A stretch of DNA of 64,000 bases from assembly GCA_038229875.1 (NCBI GenBank), contig JBBROA010000002.1, forward strand, positions 1,713 to 65,712, read 5' to 3'. The notes under the pieces are model-generated. The model was not told where the DNA came from and did not search any database. It saw only the letters and a list, made by a program, of their open reading frames with translations. The translations under genes were made by a program, and so were the position numbers. Source of the DNA: Thermoanaerobaculia bacterium (lineage in GTDB: Bacteria; Acidobacteriota; Thermoanaerobaculia; UBA5066; Gp7-AA6). Shown here in pieces: positions 1-13,328 of this stretch. Position 1 is the first letter of the stretch, and every line of letters starts with the position of its first letter.

Positions 1-3983
<3,983 letters not shown>

Positions 3984-3996
3984 GGACGGTCGCCTG

Positions 3997-5061
3997 GTGG
4001 ACGGTGGCCTGGTGAGCCCGGCCCGCAGCTCCGGCGCGCTCGCCTGCTTCGGCAGAGGACTGAGGCTCTCCCTTTCGAAGCCCTATCTCGCCGTTTCCCT
4101 GTGGCTCATCCAGCTCCTCCTCGCGTCGGTGCTGATCCTGCCGGTCTCGAACACTCTGCACGACCTGCTCGACGACTCCCCGGCGGCCAGCCGGATGGTG
4201 GCGAACCCGGATCTGGGATGGTGGGAAACGCTTCTGCGGACGCATCCCGATCTCCTCGGCAGTTTTCCGGACTTGCTCACCGGGCTCCTGACTCCCGAGG
4301 GCGTCACGGCTTCCAAGCTCGGCGGGCTGCATGGCATCGGCGCGACGGCCGTCTCCCTGGGGCTCCTCGCGATCGTGCTCCACGCGTTCGCGCTCGGCGG
4401 CGTCCTGGGGACGCTCCGGGAGCCGCACGGATCTCTCGTGACGTTCGGCCGGGAGGGGATGCGGCGCTTTCCGGCGTTCCTGGCGTTCACGCTGGCGGCG
4501 CTTGCGGCCGCTCTGTTCGCCTACCGCTGGGTGTGGATCGAGAGCGGAGTCGCCCTGCACGACCGTATGCGAGACCTGCAGAGCGAGCGGCAGGCGCTCG
4601 CGATCACGCTGGCGCGGCTCATCCTGCTCGCGCTCGTCCTCGCGACGATCAAGCTGGTGGCCGACTCGGTGCGCACCGTCTGGGTGGCGCGGCCCGATCT
4701 CCCGCCGATCTCGCGGTTCTTTGCCGGCATCGCGGGAGCGCTTTCGCGTCCGCTGCGGCTCTTCGGCGTGCTCCTCTCGGCGCTCGTCGCCATCCTGACG
4801 CTCTACGCGATCTGGATCGTCGCCGATCCGTCGGCGGGCGGAGAGGCGAGATTCGCGCTCGTCCCGCTGATCCTGACGCAGCAGGTCTTCGTCTTTCTTC
4901 GGCTGTTGATCAAGGTCGGGTATTACGCGGGGATCTCGGAGGCGCTGACGCGCACCCCGTCCCCCGAATACTCGTACGTCGCTGCGCCGCCGCCTCCCCC
5001 GTCACCGCGCCCGGCCGGCAACGACGAACCCGCTCTCGAGAACCAGGCCGGCGCCGTCTAG
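3997..5061 (+). CDS. hypothetical polytopic membrane protein with a Pro-rich C-terminal tail
   Basis: Track ORF with a GTG start. It has several hydrophobic helices and a PPPPPSPRP tail. It overlaps the convergent YdjM-like gene by about 60 nt, so the ends are uncertain. Confidence 0.5.
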   Translation: MDGGLVSPARSSGALACFGRGLRLSLSKPYLAVSLWLIQLLLASVLILPVSNTLHDLLDDSPAASRMVANPDLGWWETLLRTHPDLLGSFPDLLTGLLTPEGVTASKLGGLHGIGATAVSLGLLAIVLHAFALGGVLGTLREPHGSLVTFGREGMRRFPAFLAFTLAALAAALFAYRWVWIESGVALHDRMRDLQSERQALAITLARLILLALVLATIKLVADSVRTVWVARPDLPPISRFFAGIAGALSRPLRLFGVLLSALVAILTLYAIWIVADPSAGGEARFALVPLILTQQVFVFLRLLIKVGYYAGISEALTRTPSPEYSYVAAPPPPPSPRPAGNDEPALENQAGAV

Positions 5062-6060
5062 CCGCACGCGGTAGACGAAGGGCTGGCGGGTGTACTCGCC
5101 GTTTTTTCCGCGCGACCACGGCCCCGTGAAAAACGGCAGGAACCGGAGGTCCTCGAACGTCACCACCGCGCCGCCGTCGGGCGAGGCCGTCACCGTCTCG
5201 AGAGGAAAGCGGGCGAACGCCAGGTACGTCTGCACGTCCGGCAGCGCTCGCGCGCGACGAAGCGGGACGGAGTCGGGAGGCCGGTCGAAGCTGCGGATTC
5301 GCGCTCTCTCGGGCGGCGGATAGAAGTCGGGCAGGCGGCGAAGCGCCTCGGACAGCCGATCCGGAACGTGCGGCATGGGCACCGACCGGGCGAACGGTCC
5401 GATGTCGAAAAAGCAGGCGTGGACCGACCCGGCGTGCTCCGAGAGCGCGAGCCAGCGGAAGGGGGAAAAAAGCTGGGGCATGACGGCGACGACGGCGCCC
5501 GGCGGCGGCCGGTCGATGCGGCGCCACGCTTCGAGCGCCCCGCCGTGCAGCACGGCGCAGAAGGCGATGTAAGAGGCGAGCGCCCCGCAGCCCCACGCCG
5601 CGATCTTGCGGCCGCTCGCCGGACGGACGAGTGTCAGGAGAAGCGTCACGAAACCAATTCCGGAAAAGAAGAGGTCGATGATGAAGAGGAGATCGAGCGA
5701 GTAGCGGGTCCTGCTGAACGGCGTGAAGAACATCGTCCCGAATGACGTGATCCAGTCGAAGAGGATGTGGGACGCGATCCCGACGGCCGCGAACATCCAG
5801 AGGTCGAGGAATCTCGCCTTTCGAAAAAAAAGCCGCGCGAGCGCCGCGACCCCGACGGCGAACAGCGGGAGGTAGACGAAGGAGTGACTCCATCCCCTGT
5901 GATTGCGGAGATAGTCGACCTGCGAGCCCAAAAAAAACGTGTCCGCGTCCGGCAGCATCGCGGCGAGAAAGCCGATCCAGAGCGCGGCGCGCGCCCCGGG
6001 GCGGGACGTCATTGATCGCGTGAGCATCGCTCCCACGAGGCCGTGGCTCGGCGTATCCAT
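5002..6060 (-). CDS. YdjM/DUF457-family membrane-bound metal-dependent hydrolase
   Basis: MDTPSHGLVGAML...DADTFF...NHRGWSHS matches the YdjM family pattern. It has multiple TM helices. Confidence 0.72.
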   Translation of the reverse strand: MDTPSHGLVGAMLTRSMTSRPGARAALWIGFLAAMLPDADTFFLGSQVDYLRNHRGWSHSFVYLPLFAVGVAALARLFFRKARFLDLWMFAAVGIASHILFDWITSFGTMFFTPFSRTRYSLDLLFIIDLFFSGIGFVTLLLTLVRPASGRKIAAWGCGALASYIAFCAVLHGGALEAWRRIDRPPPGAVVAVMPQLFSPFRWLALSEHAGSVHACFFDIGPFARSVPMPHVPDRLSEALRRLPDFYPPPERARIRSFDRPPDSVPLRRARALPDVQTYLAFARFPLETVTASPDGGAVVTFEDLRFLPFFTGPWSRGKNGEYTRQPFVYRVRLDGAGLVLESGFVVAGRAR

Positions 6061-6089
6061 GCGCGGCGGATGATAATCTCGCGCCCGTT

Positions 6090-6824
6090 TTGGCCCCGCA
6101 GTCCGAGCAGACGCTCCGGGATCGCGTGGCGCTCGTCACGGGCGCCTCGTCCGGCCAGGGCCGCGCGTTCGCGGAGGGGCTCGCGCGCGCCGGCGCCAGA
6201 GTCTTCGCGGTCGCCCGGCGGGAAGAGCTGCTCCGCTCGCTCGTCACCGAGATTTGCGATTCGGGCGGTGAGGCCGCGTATCACGTCGTCGACGTGCGCT
6301 CCATTCCCGCCGTTTTCGACCTCGTGGACGTCGTGCTCGCCCGCTATCGCCGCATCGACATCCTGATCAACGCCGCGGGCATCGGCTACCGCGCTCCGTT
6401 GATCGAGCTCAAGCGGTCGCAGATCGAGGAGATGCTCGCGACCGATCTTGCCGGAGCGATCTACCTGACCTCGGCGGCGCTGCCGTCACTGATCAAGAGC
6501 GCTCCCGCGCACATCGTGAACGTGGCCTCGATCGCGGGGCTCGAGGGGTTCGCCGAGGGCTCGGTCTACTGCGCCGCGAAACACGGGCTCGTGGGCTTCA
6601 CGCGCGCGCTCGCGCAGGAATTGAAACCGCAGGGGGTGCGCGTGACGGCGCTCTGCTCCGGGTCGGTCGACACCGAGTTCTTCGACCGTTTCCGTCCGAC
6701 CACGGAGAAGAGCCAGCGACTGCGGCCGGAAGATGTGTTGGCCGCGCTCCTCGGAATCCTGACGTCGCCGCCGCACGTGCTGCATGGCGAAGTCGTGCTG
6801 CGGCCGAGGGTCGTTCCGGCCTAG
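6090..6824 (+). CDS. SDR-family short-chain dehydrogenase/reductase
   Basis: VALVTGASSGQGRA is the TGxxxGxG motif; NAAG; YCAAKHG is the YxxxK motif. The TTG start at 6090 could instead be GTG at 6126. A TGATAAT -10-like box lies at about 6071. Confidence 0.85.
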   Translation: MAPQSEQTLRDRVALVTGASSGQGRAFAEGLARAGARVFAVARREELLRSLVTEICDSGGEAAYHVVDVRSIPAVFDLVDVVLARYRRIDILINAAGIGYRAPLIELKRSQIEEMLATDLAGAIYLTSAALPSLIKSAPAHIVNVASIAGLEGFAEGSVYCAAKHGLVGFTRALAQELKPQGVRVTALCSGSVDTEFFDRFRPTTEKSQRLRPEDVLAALLGILTSPPHVLHGEVVLRPRVVPA

Positions 6825-7664: not shown

Positions 7665-8117
7665 TCAGACGATCCTCTCCCCCGGCCCCGTTCCCTGCCC
7701 GAGGTCGATCAGCTCGATGCCCGCTTCCCGGGCGACCTGCAGAGACCGCTCGTCCCGGTAGAATTCGCCGTAGTAAACCCGCGCGATCCCGGAGTTCGCG
7801 ATCAGCTTGAAACAGGGCCAGCACGGACTGGCGGTCGTGTACAGCTCCGCGTCGCGGATCGCCACCCCGTTCCGCGCGGCCTGGAGGAGCGCATTCGCCT
7901 CGGCGTGCACGGTCGAGACGCAGTGGCCGTCCTCGACGACGCAGCCGACGTCCTCGCAGTGCGGAAGCCCGCGGATCGAGCCGTTGTAGCCGGTCGAGAG
8001 GATCGTGCGGTCGCGCACGATGACGGCGCCCACGTGCTTCCGTTCGCACGTGGCCCGCGTGGCCACCTGCCGCGCGATGTTCATGAAGTACGTATGCCAG
8101 CCGACGCGTTCGTTCAT
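7665..8117 (-). CDS. dCMP/cytidine-deoxycytidylate deaminase
   Basis: MNERVGWHTYFMNIARQVA...CVSTVHAEANAL...SPCWPCFKLI is the zinc-binding H-A-E / PCxxC signature. The track ORF 7665..9323 is this gene with a spurious upstream read-through. Confidence 0.85.
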   Translation of the reverse strand: MNERVGWHTYFMNIARQVATRATCERKHVGAVIVRDRTILSTGYNGSIRGLPHCEDVGCVVEDGHCVSTVHAEANALLQAARNGVAIRDAELYTTASPCWPCFKLIANSGIARVYYGEFYRDERSLQVAREAGIELIDLGQGTGPGERIV

Positions 8118-8246
8118 GGGCCAATTATGTTCCGACACCGCCGTACGCGAGCCGGGGGTTTCGGCGCCGGGCGCCGTGTCACCATCGCTCTTTGCCTCTC
8201 GGCCTTCGCCCTCCGCCGGCAAGGGCGCGATAGAATTGAGGGTCTT

Positions 8247-9470
8247 ATGGACAAACCCCGGCGCGTCGTCGTCACCGGTCTGGGCGCCGTGACGTCGATC
8301 GGCACGAACGTGACGGATTTCTGGAAAGCGCTCCTCGAGGGGACGTGCGGCATCCGGCCGTTTTCCCTGTTCGATCCTTCCGGTTACCGCACACAGACCG
8401 CGGCGCAGGTCCTGGAGATTCCGGACGGGTTTCTCTCCGCTTCGGAAAGAAAGCGCACGTCCCGCGCCGATCGAATGGGTCTCGCGGCGGCGCGCGAGGC
8501 CATCGCGCAGTCGGGCCTCGATCTCTCGCGGGAGAATCCTGCCCGCATCGGCGTCATCCTGGGAGGCGGGACGTCGGGCCTCCTCGATTCTGAGGCGTAT
8601 TACGAGCAGCACCTTCACGGAAAGAAGGGCCGGCCCTCGCACGTCCTGAACCACCTGCCCGACGCCATTACGGATCGCGTGGCGCAGCGGTTTCGCGTCG
8701 AAGGCATCAAGTCGACGATTACGACGGCCTGCTCTTCGTCGGCAAACGCGATGGGATTCGCGCACGACGCGATCGCGGCGGGGCTGGCGGACGTCATCAT
8801 CACCGGGGGATCCGACGTCCTCGCGCGGCTCACCTACGGCGGGTTCAACTCGCTGCGCTCGGTTGATCCCGAGCCGTGCCGCCCCTTCGACCGGGAGCGC
8901 CGGGGCCTCTCGATCGGCGAGGCGGCCGGCATCCTCGTGTTCGAGGAGTGGGAGCGGGCGAAACGGCGCGGCGCCCCGATCCTGGCGGAGTTCCTGGGCT
9001 ACGGCGTCACCTCGGATGCGCACCACATGACCGCGCCCGACCCGAGCGGGGCCGCCGGAGGGCGCACCGTCCGCTCCGCGCTCGCGGCCGCCGGGATCAA
9101 CGCGGAAGACGTCGATTACGTCAACGCCCATGGAACCGCGACGCCGCAGAACGACTCCGCGGAGACGGCGGCGTTGAAGATGGGACTGGGCGGCCGGGCG
9201 CGCGAAATCCCGATCTCCTCGATCAAGTCGATGATCGGTCATTGCCTCTGCGCGTCGGGGGCGATCGAGGCGGTCGCGACCGTTCTCACCGTCCGGGACG
9301 GTAAGATTCCGCCGACGATTCACTACGACAACCCCGATCCCGCCTGCGATCTCGATTACGTTCCGAACGCCGCGCGGGAAGGCGACATCGAGGTCGCACT
9401 CTCCGATTCGTTTGCGTTCGGCGGCAACAGCTCCGTCGTGGTTTTCGCGCGGGAAGCCGGCGTTTACTGA
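8247..9470 (+). CDS. beta-ketoacyl-ACP synthase, FabF/KAS II type (catalytic Cys-His-His present)
   Basis: MDKPRRVVVTGLGAVTSIG; Cys in TTACSSSANAMG; His in VNAHGTATPQND; His in SMIGHCLCASGAIE; ends FAFGGNSSVVVF. Confidence 0.9.
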   Translation: MDKPRRVVVTGLGAVTSIGTNVTDFWKALLEGTCGIRPFSLFDPSGYRTQTAAQVLEIPDGFLSASERKRTSRADRMGLAAAREAIAQSGLDLSRENPARIGVILGGGTSGLLDSEAYYEQHLHGKKGRPSHVLNHLPDAITDRVAQRFRVEGIKSTITTACSSSANAMGFAHDAIAAGLADVIITGGSDVLARLTYGGFNSLRSVDPEPCRPFDRERRGLSIGEAAGILVFEEWERAKRRGAPILAEFLGYGVTSDAHHMTAPDPSGAAGGRTVRSALAAAGINAEDVDYVNAHGTATPQNDSAETAALKMGLGGRAREIPISSIKSMIGHCLCASGAIEAVATVLTVRDGKIPPTIHYDNPDPACDLDYVPNAAREGDIEVALSDSFAFGGNSSVVVFAREAGVY

Positions 9471-9472
9471 GC

Positions 9473-10609
9473 TTGGCGTCGAGAGGGTGGATCACGGGGA
9501 CGGGCGCCGTCTCGCCCCTGGGGCGCGGCTCGCAGGAGTTCTATCGGCGCCTCCTCGCCGGCGAGACGGCCGTGCGCCCGATGACGGCGGAGGAACGCGC
9601 CGGGCTGCAGGCGACCGAAGTGGCGCGCTGCGACGGTTTTTCGCCGCAGCCGGAGATCCCCCCCATGAAGGCCCGCCGCTTCGACCGCGGAAGCCAGTTC
9701 GCGATCGTGTCCTGTCTCGAGGCGATTCGCGAGGCCGGCTTCAACATCGCCGACGCTCCCGAGGAGATCGGGATCGCAATGGGAACCGGGTCGGCCGGAG
9801 CGGGCGCGTTGACGGAGTTTCTGCGGGTGCTGTTCCTCGAATCGCCGGAGGCCGCGCCGCCGTTCCATTTTCCCAACACGGTCGCGAACGCCCCCGCCTC
9901 GCAGGTCTCCATCGAGCTGAAGCTGTTCGGGCCGAACGTCACGATCACCCAGAAGGATCCTTCCGCATTGAACGCGCTTCTGTACGCGGTTCTGGCGCTC
10001 GAATCCGGGAGGGCGCGCGCGATGCTGGCCGGCGCGGTCGACGAATGGAACGCAATCTACGCCCTCGGATTCGACCGGGTCGGCGCGCTGCGCGGCGAGA
10101 AGCGGCGCTCGGGCATCGTGCAGGGTGAAGGCGGCTTTGCGATGCTCGTCGAGACCGAGGCGGCCGCGCGCCTCCGGGGCGTCCGGCCTCTGGCGAGCCT
10201 CGCGGGAATCGGGTTCGCGGGGGTGCCCACGGACCCGTACCGCTTCGCTCCGGATCCTGCCGCGATCCGCCGGACGATCCAGGGCGCGCTCGACGACGCC
10301 CGCGTCGCGCCCTCAGAGGTCGGGCTGTGGCTCCCCTCCGCAAACGGCGTCGTCGAGATGGACCGCGCGGAGGCCGACGTGATGCGGGAGATTTTCGGAG
10401 CGCCGCCTCGCGCGCTCGCCGTCAAGCACGCGATGGGCGAAGCCGCCGCGTCCGGAGGCGGGCAGCTCGTGGCGGCGACGCGAGCGATCGCGGACCCGGA
10501 CGGGCCGTTCCCGGCGGACGGACGGCCGCGGCGGGCCCTCGTCAACTCGTTCGGCGCCGGTGGAAACTTTCTCGCGGCCGTCCTGGAATCGCCGGCGGCG
10601 GCCGCGTGA
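9473..10609 (+). CDS. ketosynthase-like non-catalytic partner (chain-length-factor analogue; Cys/His/His replaced by Asp/Asn/Glu)
   Basis: TTG start 2 nt after the KS stop. KS fold (ITGTGAVSPLG...FGAGGNFLAAVLE). At the aligned catalytic positions it has TITQKDPSALNAL (C to D), LPSANGVV (H to N), and KHAMGEAAASGGG (H to E). Confidence 0.8.
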   Translation: MASRGWITGTGAVSPLGRGSQEFYRRLLAGETAVRPMTAEERAGLQATEVARCDGFSPQPEIPPMKARRFDRGSQFAIVSCLEAIREAGFNIADAPEEIGIAMGTGSAGAGALTEFLRVLFLESPEAAPPFHFPNTVANAPASQVSIELKLFGPNVTITQKDPSALNALLYAVLALESGRARAMLAGAVDEWNAIYALGFDRVGALRGEKRRSGIVQGEGGFAMLVETEAAARLRGVRPLASLAGIGFAGVPTDPYRFAPDPAAIRRTIQGALDDARVAPSEVGLWLPSANGVVEMDRAEADVMREIFGAPPRALAVKHAMGEAAASGGGQLVAATRAIADPDGPFPADGRPRRALVNSFGAGGNFLAAVLESPAAAA

Positions 10610-11076
10610 GCGCAGTTCGCTCGGGCGCCGCTCCGCTGAAAGGCTTCGAGATCACGATCCCGGTGCGATTTGCGGAGTGCGATTCCTACGCGGTCGTGTG
10701 GCACGGGCACTACGCTCTGTACCTCGAGCAGGTGAGGGAAGCCTTCACACGGCGTTTCGGGTTTACGGCCACGAAAGCGTTGTCGATCGGATACCGCGTG
10801 CCCATCACCCGGATGGACATCCGGTACCGCCGCCCGGCTCTCGCCGACACGGACATCCGCGTCTGCGCCCGTCTTCGACCCCCCGCGGTCGCGCGGCTCG
10901 AGATCGACTACGAGATCCGCGATGCGGGAGGCGAGCTCCTCGCGAGCGCCGTGACTGAGCAGGTCGTCTTGAACGCGTCGGGAGAGCTCCTCCTGGCGCT
11001 TCCGCGCGACCTCCGGACGCTGGTGTCGGAGATGGTCGCATACCAGGAAGATCAGGATAGAAAGGGGATCGCGTGA
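10606..11076 (+). CDS. 4HBT/YbgC-like hotdog-fold acyl thioesterase
   Basis: GTG start overlapping the upstream TGA (GTGA). FEITIPVRFAECDSYAVVWHGHYALYLE matches the 4HBT D-x4-V-x-H-x2-Y motif. Confidence 0.75.
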   Translation: MSAVRSGAAPLKGFEITIPVRFAECDSYAVVWHGHYALYLEQVREAFTRRFGFTATKALSIGYRVPITRMDIRYRRPALADTDIRVCARLRPPAVARLEIDYEIRDAGGELLASAVTEQVVLNASGELLLALPRDLRTLVSEMVAYQEDQDRKGIA

Positions 11077-11642
11077 AGGGGGATCGCGTGAAGGATGCTT
11101 CTCCGGGCCCCGCCGACAACGGGGCCGACGCCGCGGCGAGAAAACGGCGGTCGTGGTTCTTTCTGGCCCGCTTCCTCGGTCTGCTGATCGGCTTCGCGCT
11201 TCTCGTCTCGTGGACCCCGGTAAACGATCACGCCATCGTGCCGTTCACCGCGGGCGTCGCGCATGCATCGGCCGCGGTCTTAAACGTGCTCCAGGAGCGC
11301 GTCAGCGTCGTCGGAACGGAGATTCGGGCGTCCGGCTTCGGTGTCGACATCGAGAACGGCTGCAACGGCGTCGAGACCGCGCTGCTGTTCTGCGCGGCGG
11401 TGCTCGCCTTCCCTGCTTCCTGGAAGGCGCGGGGTATCGGTCTCCTGCTCGGCTTCGTGGCGATCCAGGGCATCAACCTCGTCCGGGTGGTCTCGCTCTT
11501 CTGGATCGGCCGCCACCACCCCGCTCTTTTCTCGAGCGCTCACACGGTCATCTGGCAGTCGGCGGTCGTCCTGGCCGGCGTCCTGCTGTTCCTCCTGTGG
11601 GCCTCCCGGCAGAAGAGCGGGGCCTCTCCCGCAAACGCGTGA
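11073..11642 (+). CDS. minimal exosortase/archaeosortase-family protein (conserved Cys core only, 189 aa)
   Basis: GTG overlapping the thioesterase TGA; an alternative GTG lies at 11088 because of a 16-bp tandem duplication. GTEIRASGFGVDIENGCNGVETALLFCAAVLAF fits the exosortase G-N-x-I-x-L-P-x-G-x-F-x-V-x-E-A-C-S-G pattern. A downstream TM helix carries the N-L-V-R (NxxR) motif. It has 4-5 TM helices. Confidence 0.6.
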   Translation: MKGDRVKDASPGPADNGADAAARKRRSWFFLARFLGLLIGFALLVSWTPVNDHAIVPFTAGVAHASAAVLNVLQERVSVVGTEIRASGFGVDIENGCNGVETALLFCAAVLAFPASWKARGIGLLLGFVAIQGINLVRVVSLFWIGRHHPALFSSAHTVIWQSAVVLAGVLLFLLWASRQKSGASPANA

Positions 11643-12223
11643 CGGTCTCCCGCGCCGCGCGACGCGCGCTCATGCGCGGAGCCGCCGGGTTCGCCGTGGG
11701 TCTGGCGCTCTGGCTCGCCCTTTCCGCGCCCTACGAGCGGGCGGTCGCCTTCGCCGCGGAAGCGCTGCTGCGGCTGGGAGAGCATCCCGCGGTCACGCGG
11801 ATAACCCCTCGCGGCGGCGAGTTCGTGATCGACCGGAGCGATTTTCCTCCAGCCGCCCCGCGCCCCGGTCTCCCCGCCGCGGATCTCCACTTCAACCTGG
11901 TGATCCTTGCCGCGCTGCTCGCCGCGCTTCCGCCAGCCAGGGGCTCGCGCGTTCTGCTTGCGTTCGCGCTGCTGTACGTCGTGCACGTCGTCGCGCTCTG
12001 CTGCCAGGTGGAATCGCTTTACGCGACGCGGCTCGGGGCCTGGAGTGAGGCAAACTACGGGGCTTTTGCGCGCAACGCGTGGGCGGCCGCTTTCCACGTG
12101 TACCAGATCGCCGGACGATTCGCAGCGCCGTTTGCAATCTGGTGGCCGCTCGCCTGGCGGGAGCCCGCGGATCCGGAAGTCAGGAAAGGTCCGGCGAGAG
12201 GGAAGAAAAAGGCGAAGAGATGA
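11639..12223 (+). CDS. hypothetical polytopic membrane protein, last gene of the KS/CLF/TE/exosortase operon
   Basis: GTG overlapping the upstream TGA (GTGA). It has 3-4 hydrophobic helices and a basic tail RKGPARGKKKAKR. I recognise no domain. Confidence 0.45.
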   Translation: MTVSRAARRALMRGAAGFAVGLALWLALSAPYERAVAFAAEALLRLGEHPAVTRITPRGGEFVIDRSDFPPAAPRPGLPAADLHFNLVILAALLAALPPARGSRVLLAFALLYVVHVVALCCQVESLYATRLGAWSEANYGAFARNAWAAAFHVYQIAGRFAAPFAIWWPLAWREPADPEVRKGPARGKKKAKR

Positions 12224-12251: not shown

Positions 12252-13328
12252 CTACGGGCGCTTGTTGCGGTCGCGGCGCAGGTAGCGGTAGTCGGGGACC
12301 TGATACTCCTTCAGCTTCGCGATCAGCGAGCCGCGCGAGATGTTCAGGACTTCCGCGCCGCGGCTCTGATTTCCCTGTACGCGGCGCATCGCGCGGTCGA
12401 TGACCTCGCGCTCGACGGTCTCGACGATCTTCTTCAGGTCGTCGGTCTGCCGCAGGACGGCGTCGATCTCATCCTCGTTCGGAGGCTCGACGACGACAGG
12501 CGAGGGCACCTCGGCGGGCCCTCGCTCGGAGCGGCGGACCGCGATTCCCGCCAGCTGGGCGGCCTCTTCGAGGAAAAGGATGGTCCTTGCGGGAAGCCTT
12601 GGGCTCTCGCGGACCAGGATCGCGAAGGCGCCGTCCGAAGCCGCGTTCTCGACAACCAGAGTGAGCACTCCGGCGACGCTTTCGGAGCGAACCACACGCT
12701 CGCCCCCGCGGACCTCCTCGAGAAGGCTCGGAGGAAGCGCCGGCTGGTCGACGAACGTCGAAGCGAGAAACCGGAACCCGTTTGCCGCCGTCACGTGGCC
12801 GACCGCCCACTCGCGCGGGGCGAATTCCTGATCCAGAAAATCCGTGAGAGCGATCGCGACTTCCTCCGGGCTGTCGTGCTGCCGGCACAGGCGGTAGGCG
12901 GAAAGCCGCAGGGCGCGATATTCGACTTCCGTCGCTGGCGCGGCAGACGCCTCAGGGGAGGACGATGACACGTCGTTGATGGGAATCTCGTGGACCGGCG
13001 CGGGCCGCCCGGGGTTGCTGCCGACCTGGACAACCGTGATGGTCGCCTCTCCGATCGTGATGCGATCGCCCGCCGCGATCGGCCCGCCCGAAAATTCGCG
13101 GCCGTTCACGGTGATGGCGTCGACGCCTTTATAGAGGTCGAGCTGGTAGCGGCCGTCCTTCTCGACGAAACGGATGTGGCGGCCAGCAACCCCACGCGCT
13201 CGAACGACGACTTCGTTGCCGGAAGAAGCGCCGACGGTGATCGCCGTGCCGAGCACGCGGTGCAATTCCGCCCCTCCCGCTCGTTTGCGGACTTCCAAGT
13301 TCAGCATTTTTGTCTTCTTGTCCGTCAA
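12252..13328 (-). CDS. FHA-domain transcriptional regulator with C-terminal Fis-type HTH
   Basis: The N-terminus ITVGASSGNEVVVRARGVAGRHIRFVEKDGRYQL is an FHA domain. The C-terminus RGAEVLNISRGSLIAKLKEYQV is a Fis-family HTH. The middle looks GAF-like. Confidence 0.72.
   Translation of the reverse strand: MTDKKTKMLNLEVRKRAGGAELHRVLGTAITVGASSGNEVVVRARGVAGRHIRFVEKDGRYQLDLYKGVDAITVNGREFSGGPIAAGDRITIGEATITVVQVGSNPGRPAPVHEIPINDVSSSSPEASAAPATEVEYRALRLSAYRLCRQHDSPEEVAIALTDFLDQEFAPREWAVGHVTAANGFRFLASTFVDQPALPPSLLEEVRGGERVVRSESVAGVLTLVVENAASDGAFAILVRESPRLPARTILFLEEAAQLAGIAVRRSERGPAEVPSPVVVEPPNEDEIDAVLRQTDDLKKIVETVEREVIDRAMRRVQGNQSRGAEVLNISRGSLIAKLKEYQVPDYRYLRRDRNKRP

Follow-up and report, generated by a model that had tools for sequence, protein, structure and literature searches.

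An exosortase H gene and its constant membrane-protein neighbour in a Thermoanaerobaculia bacterium

Analysis of a 64,000-nucleotide stretch of DNA from a Thermoanaerobaculia bacterium (contig JBBROA010000002.1; the whole stretch is referred to here as the window) identified a gene ending at position 11642 that, to judge from its sequence, is very probably xrtH. Its product, exosortase H (XrtH), belongs to a known class of small polytopic inner-membrane enzymes within the exosortase/archaeosortase family; presumably the members of this family are cysteine proteases or transpeptidases. The finding itself is that of an ordinary member of a curated enzyme class, accompanied by a member of a curated partner family encoded directly downstream. 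What is modestly new is the likely exosortase ancestry of this partner, together with a lineage-specific operon in which the two genes follow those for a pair of ketosynthases and a thioesterase.

Identification of the xrtH gene

The open reading frame (ORF) at 11073..11642 on the forward strand encodes 189 amino acids (aa) from a GTG codon, and contains the sequences VVGTEIRASGFGVDIENGCNGVE and GINLVRVV. Its GC content at third codon positions (GC3) is 0.85, similar to that of other genes in the window, which has an overall GC content of 67%. The product had been taken for an exosortase/archaeosortase-core protein in an earlier note on this DNA, made from the letters alone, and the profile searches bore this out, with both family models matching above their cut-offs. 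The NCBIfam model for exosortase H, TIGR04177, scored 116.2 bits against a cut-off of 86 (E = 1.4e-33), with XrtH residues 32-177 aligned to model positions 5-152 of 158 (148/158 covered). Comparison with TIGR04178, the exosortase/archaeosortase signature to which the note had pointed, was also significant, at 54.7 bits against a cut-off of 23 (E = 9e-15). The Pfam model PF09721 was matched at 27.8 bits (cut-off 25.7) over its C-terminal part only, positions 105-251 of 254. Ten further exosortase/archaeosortase classes in NCBIfam matched the protein, all under their own cut-offs.

A search of 5.8 billion proteins returned 1713 homologues of XrtH, approximately 180-190 aa in length. The 120 homologues that were listed are 166-198 aa long, and many of them, in Thermoanaerobaculia/Acidobacteriota genomes, are labelled 'exosortase H' by JGI or NCBI. 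Screening of GTDB genomes, one for each species, gave 115 xrtH loci, and all of those kept (80/80) belong to the Thermoanaerobaculia/Acidobacteriota lineage.

At the start of the gene the sequence shows a tandem duplication of 15 bp without a mismatch, in which GGGGATCGCGTGAAG occurs twice, at 11064-11078 and 11079-11093. Because of this duplication the reading frame has a choice of two GTG starts, one at 11073 and the other at 11088, and the longer reading gains five codons (MKGDR) from it. The start at 11088 (184 aa) is favoured over that at 11073 (189 aa), since the N-termini of homologues begin MKAARPG... and a 99%-identical protein, P0001, was called at 184 aa. Residue numbers given here count from the GTG at 11073. 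The gene and the duplication are placed as follows.

11088 (alternative 11073)..11642, forward strand: xrtH, predicted exosortase H, from matches to TIGR04177, TIGR04178 and PF09721 and from named homologues.
11064..11093, forward strand: tandem duplication of GGGGATCGCGTGAAG (two copies), covering the stop codon of the upstream thioesterase gene and both candidate xrtH starts.

Length and cysteine motif within the class

The protein had previously been described as unusually short, as a stripped-down catalytic core, and as having its cysteine motif as C-N-G, to be set against the canonical C-S-G. These features were compared across the class. When 1.84 billion cluster representatives were searched with a profile, there were 4445 matches at E ≤ 0.001, of which the best 150 XrtH-type representatives, 25-69% identical to the query, formed a diverse set. 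Their median length was 187 aa, as compared with 184-189 aa for the window protein, a small size (approximately 160-190 aa) in contrast to the 8-TM XrtA/EpsH type. The residue following the cysteine was most often Asn (63 representatives) or Asp (61), with Thr (11) and Ser (7) much rarer; GCDA occurred 47 times, GCNG 46 times and GCSG once. The GCNG form was found also in the canonical gammaproteobacterial XrtH of Rhodanobacteraceae, Dokdonella and Xanthomonadales. Given this median length and the frequency of Asn after the cysteine, both the short length and the C-N-G motif are ordinary for the XrtH class.

Short proteins are common in the wider family as well. At least ten other curated exosortase/archaeosortase classes have models 150-199 positions long, and models of 150-187 positions describe XrtH, XrtM, XrtX, XrtY, XrtF, XrtG, ArtB, ArtD, ArtE, ArtF and pacearchaeosortase. 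When plasmids were searched by tblastn for long exosortases, the only relatives found were short XrtM genes of Methylomonas. The description as unusually short is thus true only against XrtA-type enzymes, the XrtH model being itself only 158 positions long, and the protein is better regarded as a full-length member of a curated class than as a reduced core. With GCNG in 46/150 representatives and in canonical XrtH, the cysteine motif is likewise not exceptional.

Conserved residues, topology and a possible mechanism

Among 33 close homologues, residues N95, G96, C97, N98, G99, E101, N135, R138, H148, H157, W161 and Q162 were invariant. In the alignment of diverse representatives, Cys97 was conserved in 145/147 sequences, Asn135 in 147/148, Arg138 in 147/147 and His157 in 141/143. 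The codons concerned, assigned on the basis of this conservation, are listed below.

11361..11363, forward strand: TGC codon of Cys97, the presumed nucleophile, within N95-G96-C97-N98-G99.
11475..11486, forward strand: codons of N135-L-V-R138, the NxxR motif, with Arg138 presumed to be catalytic.
11541..11543, forward strand: CAC codon of His157, the presumed third member of a Cys/Arg/His triad.

In the archaeosortase ArtA of Haloferax volcanii, Cys173, Arg214 and Arg253 are critical (PMC9263693), and the triad suspected for the family consists of Cys, Arg and His (Haft preprint, 10.1101/2023.06.07.544157). The spacing from Cys to Arg is 41 residues both in XrtH (Cys97/Arg138) and in ArtA (Cys173/Arg214). 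The alignment of the cysteine and of the NxxR arginine with conserved columns, at an ArtA-like spacing, agrees with the assignment of these two motifs in the earlier note. A further arginine, Arg179, lies 41 residues past Arg138, but it is kept in at least 90% of sequences in the close clade only; across XrtH-type proteins this column holds Trp, Arg or Lys.

An AlphaFold2 model of XrtH was obtained with a predicted local distance difference test score (pLDDT) of 89. In the model, Cys97 opens a helix, residues 98-112, that comes right after a three-stranded sheet. The hydropathy profile and the positions of Lys and Arg residues are compatible with a topology in which the N-terminus is inside. 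XrtH probably has a cytoplasmic N-terminus and four firm transmembrane helices, with a more amphipathic helix and the small three-stranded sheet on the outer side. In this arrangement three residues would cluster near the outer leaflet: Cys97, where the helix behind the sheet begins; Arg138, at the outer tip of the helix that follows; and His157, where the last helix begins.

Such an enzyme would recognise surface proteins bearing a short C-terminal tail in which a motif is followed by a transmembrane helix and then by a basic end, the motif for the XrtH class being presumably of the IPTLxxWG type. Cleavage would take place at the motif by way of a thioacyl intermediate on Cys97, after which the tail would be released and the protein either freed or transferred to an acceptor. 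We know of no exosortase for which the acceptor has been established. Site-directed mutagenesis of ArtA, along with family-wide conservation, suggests this mechanism, and we infer catalysis by XrtH from its observed family membership and its conserved Cys, Asn, Arg and His residues.

The downstream partner gene

A second ORF starts from a GTG at 11639, overlapping the xrtH stop by 4 nt (GTGA), and encodes 194 aa. Its hydropathy profile shows three strongly hydrophobic segments and one weaker segment; the earlier note had described a separate 3-4 TM protein at this position.

11639..12223, forward strand: predicted XrtH-associated membrane protein, 194 aa, from NF041730, from PF28117 on homologues and from adjacency to xrtH.

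The product matched the NCBIfam model NF041730 ('exosortase H-associated membrane protein') over positions 2-177 of 184 (E = 1.1e-6). PF28117 (XrtH_assoc) is found in precomputed annotation of many close homologues, and faintly on the gene at locus L001 that tblastn showed to be 100% identical to the window partner; a local Pfam scan of the window partner gave no PF28117 match. As determined by tblastn and hidden Markov model (HMM) searches, the partner adjoins xrtH in 81 of 82 related loci, and the one other locus breaks off near xrtH. The partner is a member of a known accessory family, described as NF041730 and PF28117, rather than the new accessory subunit that had been envisaged, and its adjacency to xrtH is obligatory in this lineage.

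Ancestry of the partner

To compare the partner with XrtH itself, profiles were broadened to 115 partner sequences, including divergent ones from the related loci, and to approximately 140 diverse XrtH sequences. With these, hhalign aligned partner residues 7-148 with XrtH residues 23-161, collinearly and over 127 columns (P = 0.0011). Controls used the template reversed, or shuffled in 12-column blocks (n = 60), with the following results.

Native template: score 26.5; 128 columns aligned.
Reversed template: score 15.4; 13 columns aligned.
60 block-shuffles: mean score 15.7, standard deviation 2.8, maximum 23.8; at most 60 columns aligned among the ten best-scoring shuffles.

Both the AlphaFold2 model of the partner (pLDDT 87) and that of XrtH start with N-terminal helices, which are followed in turn by three strands, one helix of approximately 15 residues, another of approximately 30 residues, and a long helix. 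The partner family has no conserved cysteine, and Arg138 of XrtH aligns with Gln123 of the partner. At L088, a locus from another lineage, the partner gene overlaps the preceding XrtH gene by 23 nt. Its product matched the broad XrtH HMM with 22 bits across ATPIPWRRRWRALAMGLLMVTAFVVLRMS...QVFH ('A-x-P-x-x-W-R-R-R...L-R...H'), in which the Arg and His are kept and there is no Cys, and in NCBIfam it matched both TIGR04177 (E = 1.3e-3) and NF041730 (E = 2.9e-3). A 425-aa ORF, P0314, encodes an XrtH domain (99 bits on TIGR04177) and, in the same chain, a partner-like domain that shares 39% identity with the separate partner of L088. Exactly this ORF occurs in two assemblies (L090, 3456-4733; L091, 698-1975) that derive from different sequencing runs.

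It is possible, if doubtful, that the partner is instead an accessory membrane protein unrelated to exosortases, such as a substrate chaperone, an acceptor-binding subunit or a regulator, and that its likeness to XrtH is of a kind generic to small helical membrane proteins. Such a likeness would not readily account for a native alignment that is full-length and collinear and that exceeds 60/60 block-shuffles as well as the reversed control, for the equal order of secondary structure elements in the two proteins, or for the L088 partner, which matches the XrtH HMM at 22 bits and NF041730 weakly. Taken together, the data are suggestive, but not conclusive, of an exosortase-derived, non-catalytic paralogue that has lost its nucleophile. 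As such, the partner would most likely pair with XrtH as a non-catalytic subunit, for scaffolding or for substrate handling, and the two proteins would form a heterodimer. If this is true, XrtH systems would be pairs of an active and a dead enzyme, a pattern known in other enzyme families.

Other fused or duplicated proteins were encountered among the homologues. P0376 (503 aa) has tandem XrtH-like domains at residues 17-170 and 184-338, followed by approximately 160 hydrophobic residues; its second XrtH-like domain also has the Cys and N-x-x-R. Three apparent fusions of XrtH and partner, P0285, P0335 and P0350, are probably chimeras made by frameshifts and were set aside. In P0285 and P0350 the blocks matching XrtH and those matching the partner are separated by garbled stretches; P0335 was judged by its match pattern only.

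Points against a catalytic XrtH with an exosortase-derived partner

Several results weigh against reading the two genes as an active exosortase and its catalytically inactive relative. With narrow profiles, hhalign gave no significant match between partner and XrtH (probability 0.4%), and even with the broad profiles the probability was only 21%, indicating weak homology. On NF041730 the partner scored 28.5 bits, under the curated cut-off of 35, and six of its Thermoanaerobaculia relatives scored 21-33 bits, also under the cut-off. These sub-cut-off scores explain why the relatives are recorded by NCBI as 'hypothetical protein', so that partners in this class, lying just under the NCBIfam threshold, are left without a name publicly. 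Canonical gammaproteobacterial XrtH has no adjacent partner gene, and the partner is therefore not required across the whole class. No related entry came up when the PDB was searched with the XrtH sequence (best E-value 2.3), and the PDB searches as a whole offered no related structure as an anchor for the mechanism. To our knowledge, neither a structure nor a biochemical reconstitution exists for any exosortase.

The substrates form a further point. Sorting tails were sought with PEP and IPTL patterns, a generic pattern of a transmembrane segment plus basic tail, and a loose PTL pattern. Apart from one locus, L087, no protein with a C-terminal sorting tail was found in the window or within approximately 8 kb around xrtH in the 82 related loci (1.25 Mb in total). 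Nor did the window or the flanking sequences of these loci encode any IPTLxxWG-CTERM (TIGR04174) protein. With no tailed protein nearby, 'IPTLxxWG-specific' is for this clade simply a class label. A literature search on XrtH and IPTL-CTERM returned no study of the class; all it yielded was a single S-layer protein whose annotation includes an IPTL-CTERM tail.

At L087, a He_PIG-repeat protein (3-470) ends ...GGPTLDSVGLAILILLLTGVGVLLVNRFTL, its stop lying 22 nt before the XrtH gene (492-1013). The XrtH encoded there is 44% identical to that of the window. The tail, in which a hydrophobic helix comes after a PTL-type motif, looks like a sorting signal of that type, although no CTERM model was matched at E ≤ 1. 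This He_PIG protein is a candidate cognate substrate.

Operon and gene neighbourhood

The xrtH gene and its partner are the last two of a run of five genes, of which the first three are as follows.

8250..9470, forward strand: predicted FabF-type beta-ketoacyl-acyl carrier protein (ACP) synthase II, first of the five-gene run, from NF005589.
9473..10609, forward strand: ketosynthase-like protein without the Cys/His/His site, resembling a chain-length factor, from its fabF match and pairwise alignment.
10606..11076, forward strand: predicted 4HBT-fold acyl-CoA/ACP thioesterase, overlapping the preceding stop by 4 nt.

The upstream ketosynthase scored 413 bits on NF005589 (cut-off 387) and 416 bits on TIGR03150, under the equivalog cut-off of 494, and its active-site motifs TACSSS, HGTATP and GHCLCASG are all present. 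The ketosynthase-like protein reached 135 bits on fabF, far under the cut-off; in alignment with the upstream ketosynthase, its Cys is replaced by Asp, one His by Ala and the other His by Glu. The thioesterase matched YbgC/FadM-type models with E-values of 1e-10 to 1e-12, all under cut-offs, and the identical gene at L001 is matched by PF13279 and PF03061. Gaps between the five genes are 2, -4, 11 (or -4 with the start at 11073) and -4 nt. In most of the 82 related loci the trio of ketosynthase, ketosynthase-like protein and thioesterase lies directly upstream of xrtH. In 14 related loci only the pair of xrtH and partner is present, without the trio and beside unrelated housekeeping genes.

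This arrangement raises the question of whether the pair serves a lipid pathway, with the trio making an acyl or lipid acceptor, or with the pair processing or anchoring a component of the pathway rather than many surface proteins. The tight packing of the five genes, the position of the trio in most of the loci, the lipid anchoring of ArtA substrates, and a second ketosynthase that has lost all three catalytic residues, like the chain-length-factor partners of specialised pathways, would fit such a role. We nevertheless consider it unlikely. The link is limited to one class and may reflect inherited gene order, since genes for dCMP deaminase, a short-chain dehydrogenase/reductase (SDR), an FHA/HTH_8 regulator and SMC are equally syntenic in the related loci. 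The pair persists without the trio in the 14 loci mentioned above, XrtH genes of other phyla have different neighbours, and no gene for an ACP, an acyltransferase or an exporter occurs within the run. Equally improbable, in our estimation, is the more specific proposal that XrtH and its Cys-less partner form an obligate heterodimer, co-expressed with a trio that makes the lipid acceptor for transfer by XrtH. If that proposal were true, these genes would provide a compact system for identifying the acceptor of an exosortase. The operon with its specialised ketosynthase pair and thioesterase is a testable hint on the acceptor or on lipid chemistry.

Further ORFs were observed around the run. An ORF at 12252-13328 on the reverse strand converges on the pair of xrtH and partner and is syntenic in most related loci. 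Its product combines an FHA-like N-terminus with a Fis-type HTH_8 domain at the C-terminus and lacks a sigma-54 AAA+ domain; the identical gene at L001 carries a Yop-YscD_cpl match. ORFs at 3970-5061 (forward strand) and 5002-6135 (reverse strand) have coding-like GC3 values of 0.87 and 0.84, and gave no NCBIfam match at E ≤ 0.001.

Comparison with known systems

The proposal of the earlier note that the two genes are a split exosortase, the 189-aa protein being the catalytic C-terminal half and the partner supplying the N-terminal helices of long exosortases, could draw on the overlap and constant adjacency of the genes in this lineage and on the restriction of XrtH to the C-terminal part of long models (PF09721, 105-251/254; TIGR02602, 89-235/241 for a relative), but it is very improbable, as short forms are a normal state among the curated classes (eleven class models of 150-187 positions), canonical XrtH of Rhodanobacteraceae and relatives is a lone gene with no such neighbour, and the partner, unlike the N-terminal three-helix segment, has a beta-sheet and aligns collinearly with XrtH core residues 23-161, its sole detectable likeness.

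The closest known system is canonical XrtH (TIGR04177, 'exosortase H, IPTLxxWG-CTERM-specific'), which shares with the window protein a length of approximately 180 aa, the G-C-N-G, N-x-x-R and W-Q motifs and the His. The gammaproteobacterial proteins are approximately 30-45% identical to it. Gene context differs, in that canonical xrtH stands by itself, flanked by aroK-aroB and by pdxH-type genes, whereas here a partner is always present, usually behind the trio. In L083 (xrtH at 8001-8519) and in L085 and L086 (8001-8498), xrtH adjoins opposite-strand genes for shikimate kinase and dehydroquinate synthase. The gene for pyridoxamine-phosphate oxidase comes immediately after xrtH in L083, whereas in L085 and L086 it is located approximately 5 kb farther downstream. 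No gene for an XrtH-associated protein adjoins xrtH in these three loci. The IPTL-type substrates of the canonical class also set it apart from the present clade, none having been found in the window or in the 82 related loci.

The window partner resembles the NF041730/PF28117 family over nearly its full length and occupies the same site, right after xrtH. It differs from that family in score, as all Thermoanaerobaculia members tested fall below the 35-bit cut-off. XrtM (TIGR04300), XrtX (NF046081), ArtB (TIGR04144) and XrtF (TIGR04128) have the same core of approximately 150-175 residues, and matched window XrtH with E-values of 1e-12 to 1e-19, though with scores far under their class cut-offs.

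ArtA of Haloferax volcanii is a member of this superfamily too (TIGR04125, E = 2e-4 for window XrtH). Both proteins have a second basic residue approximately 40 positions beyond the first arginine, Arg253 in ArtA and, in the close clade only, Arg179 in XrtH. ArtA differs in being longer (model of 271 positions), in recognising PGF-CTERM tails, and in having substrates that are anchored by archaeal lipids.

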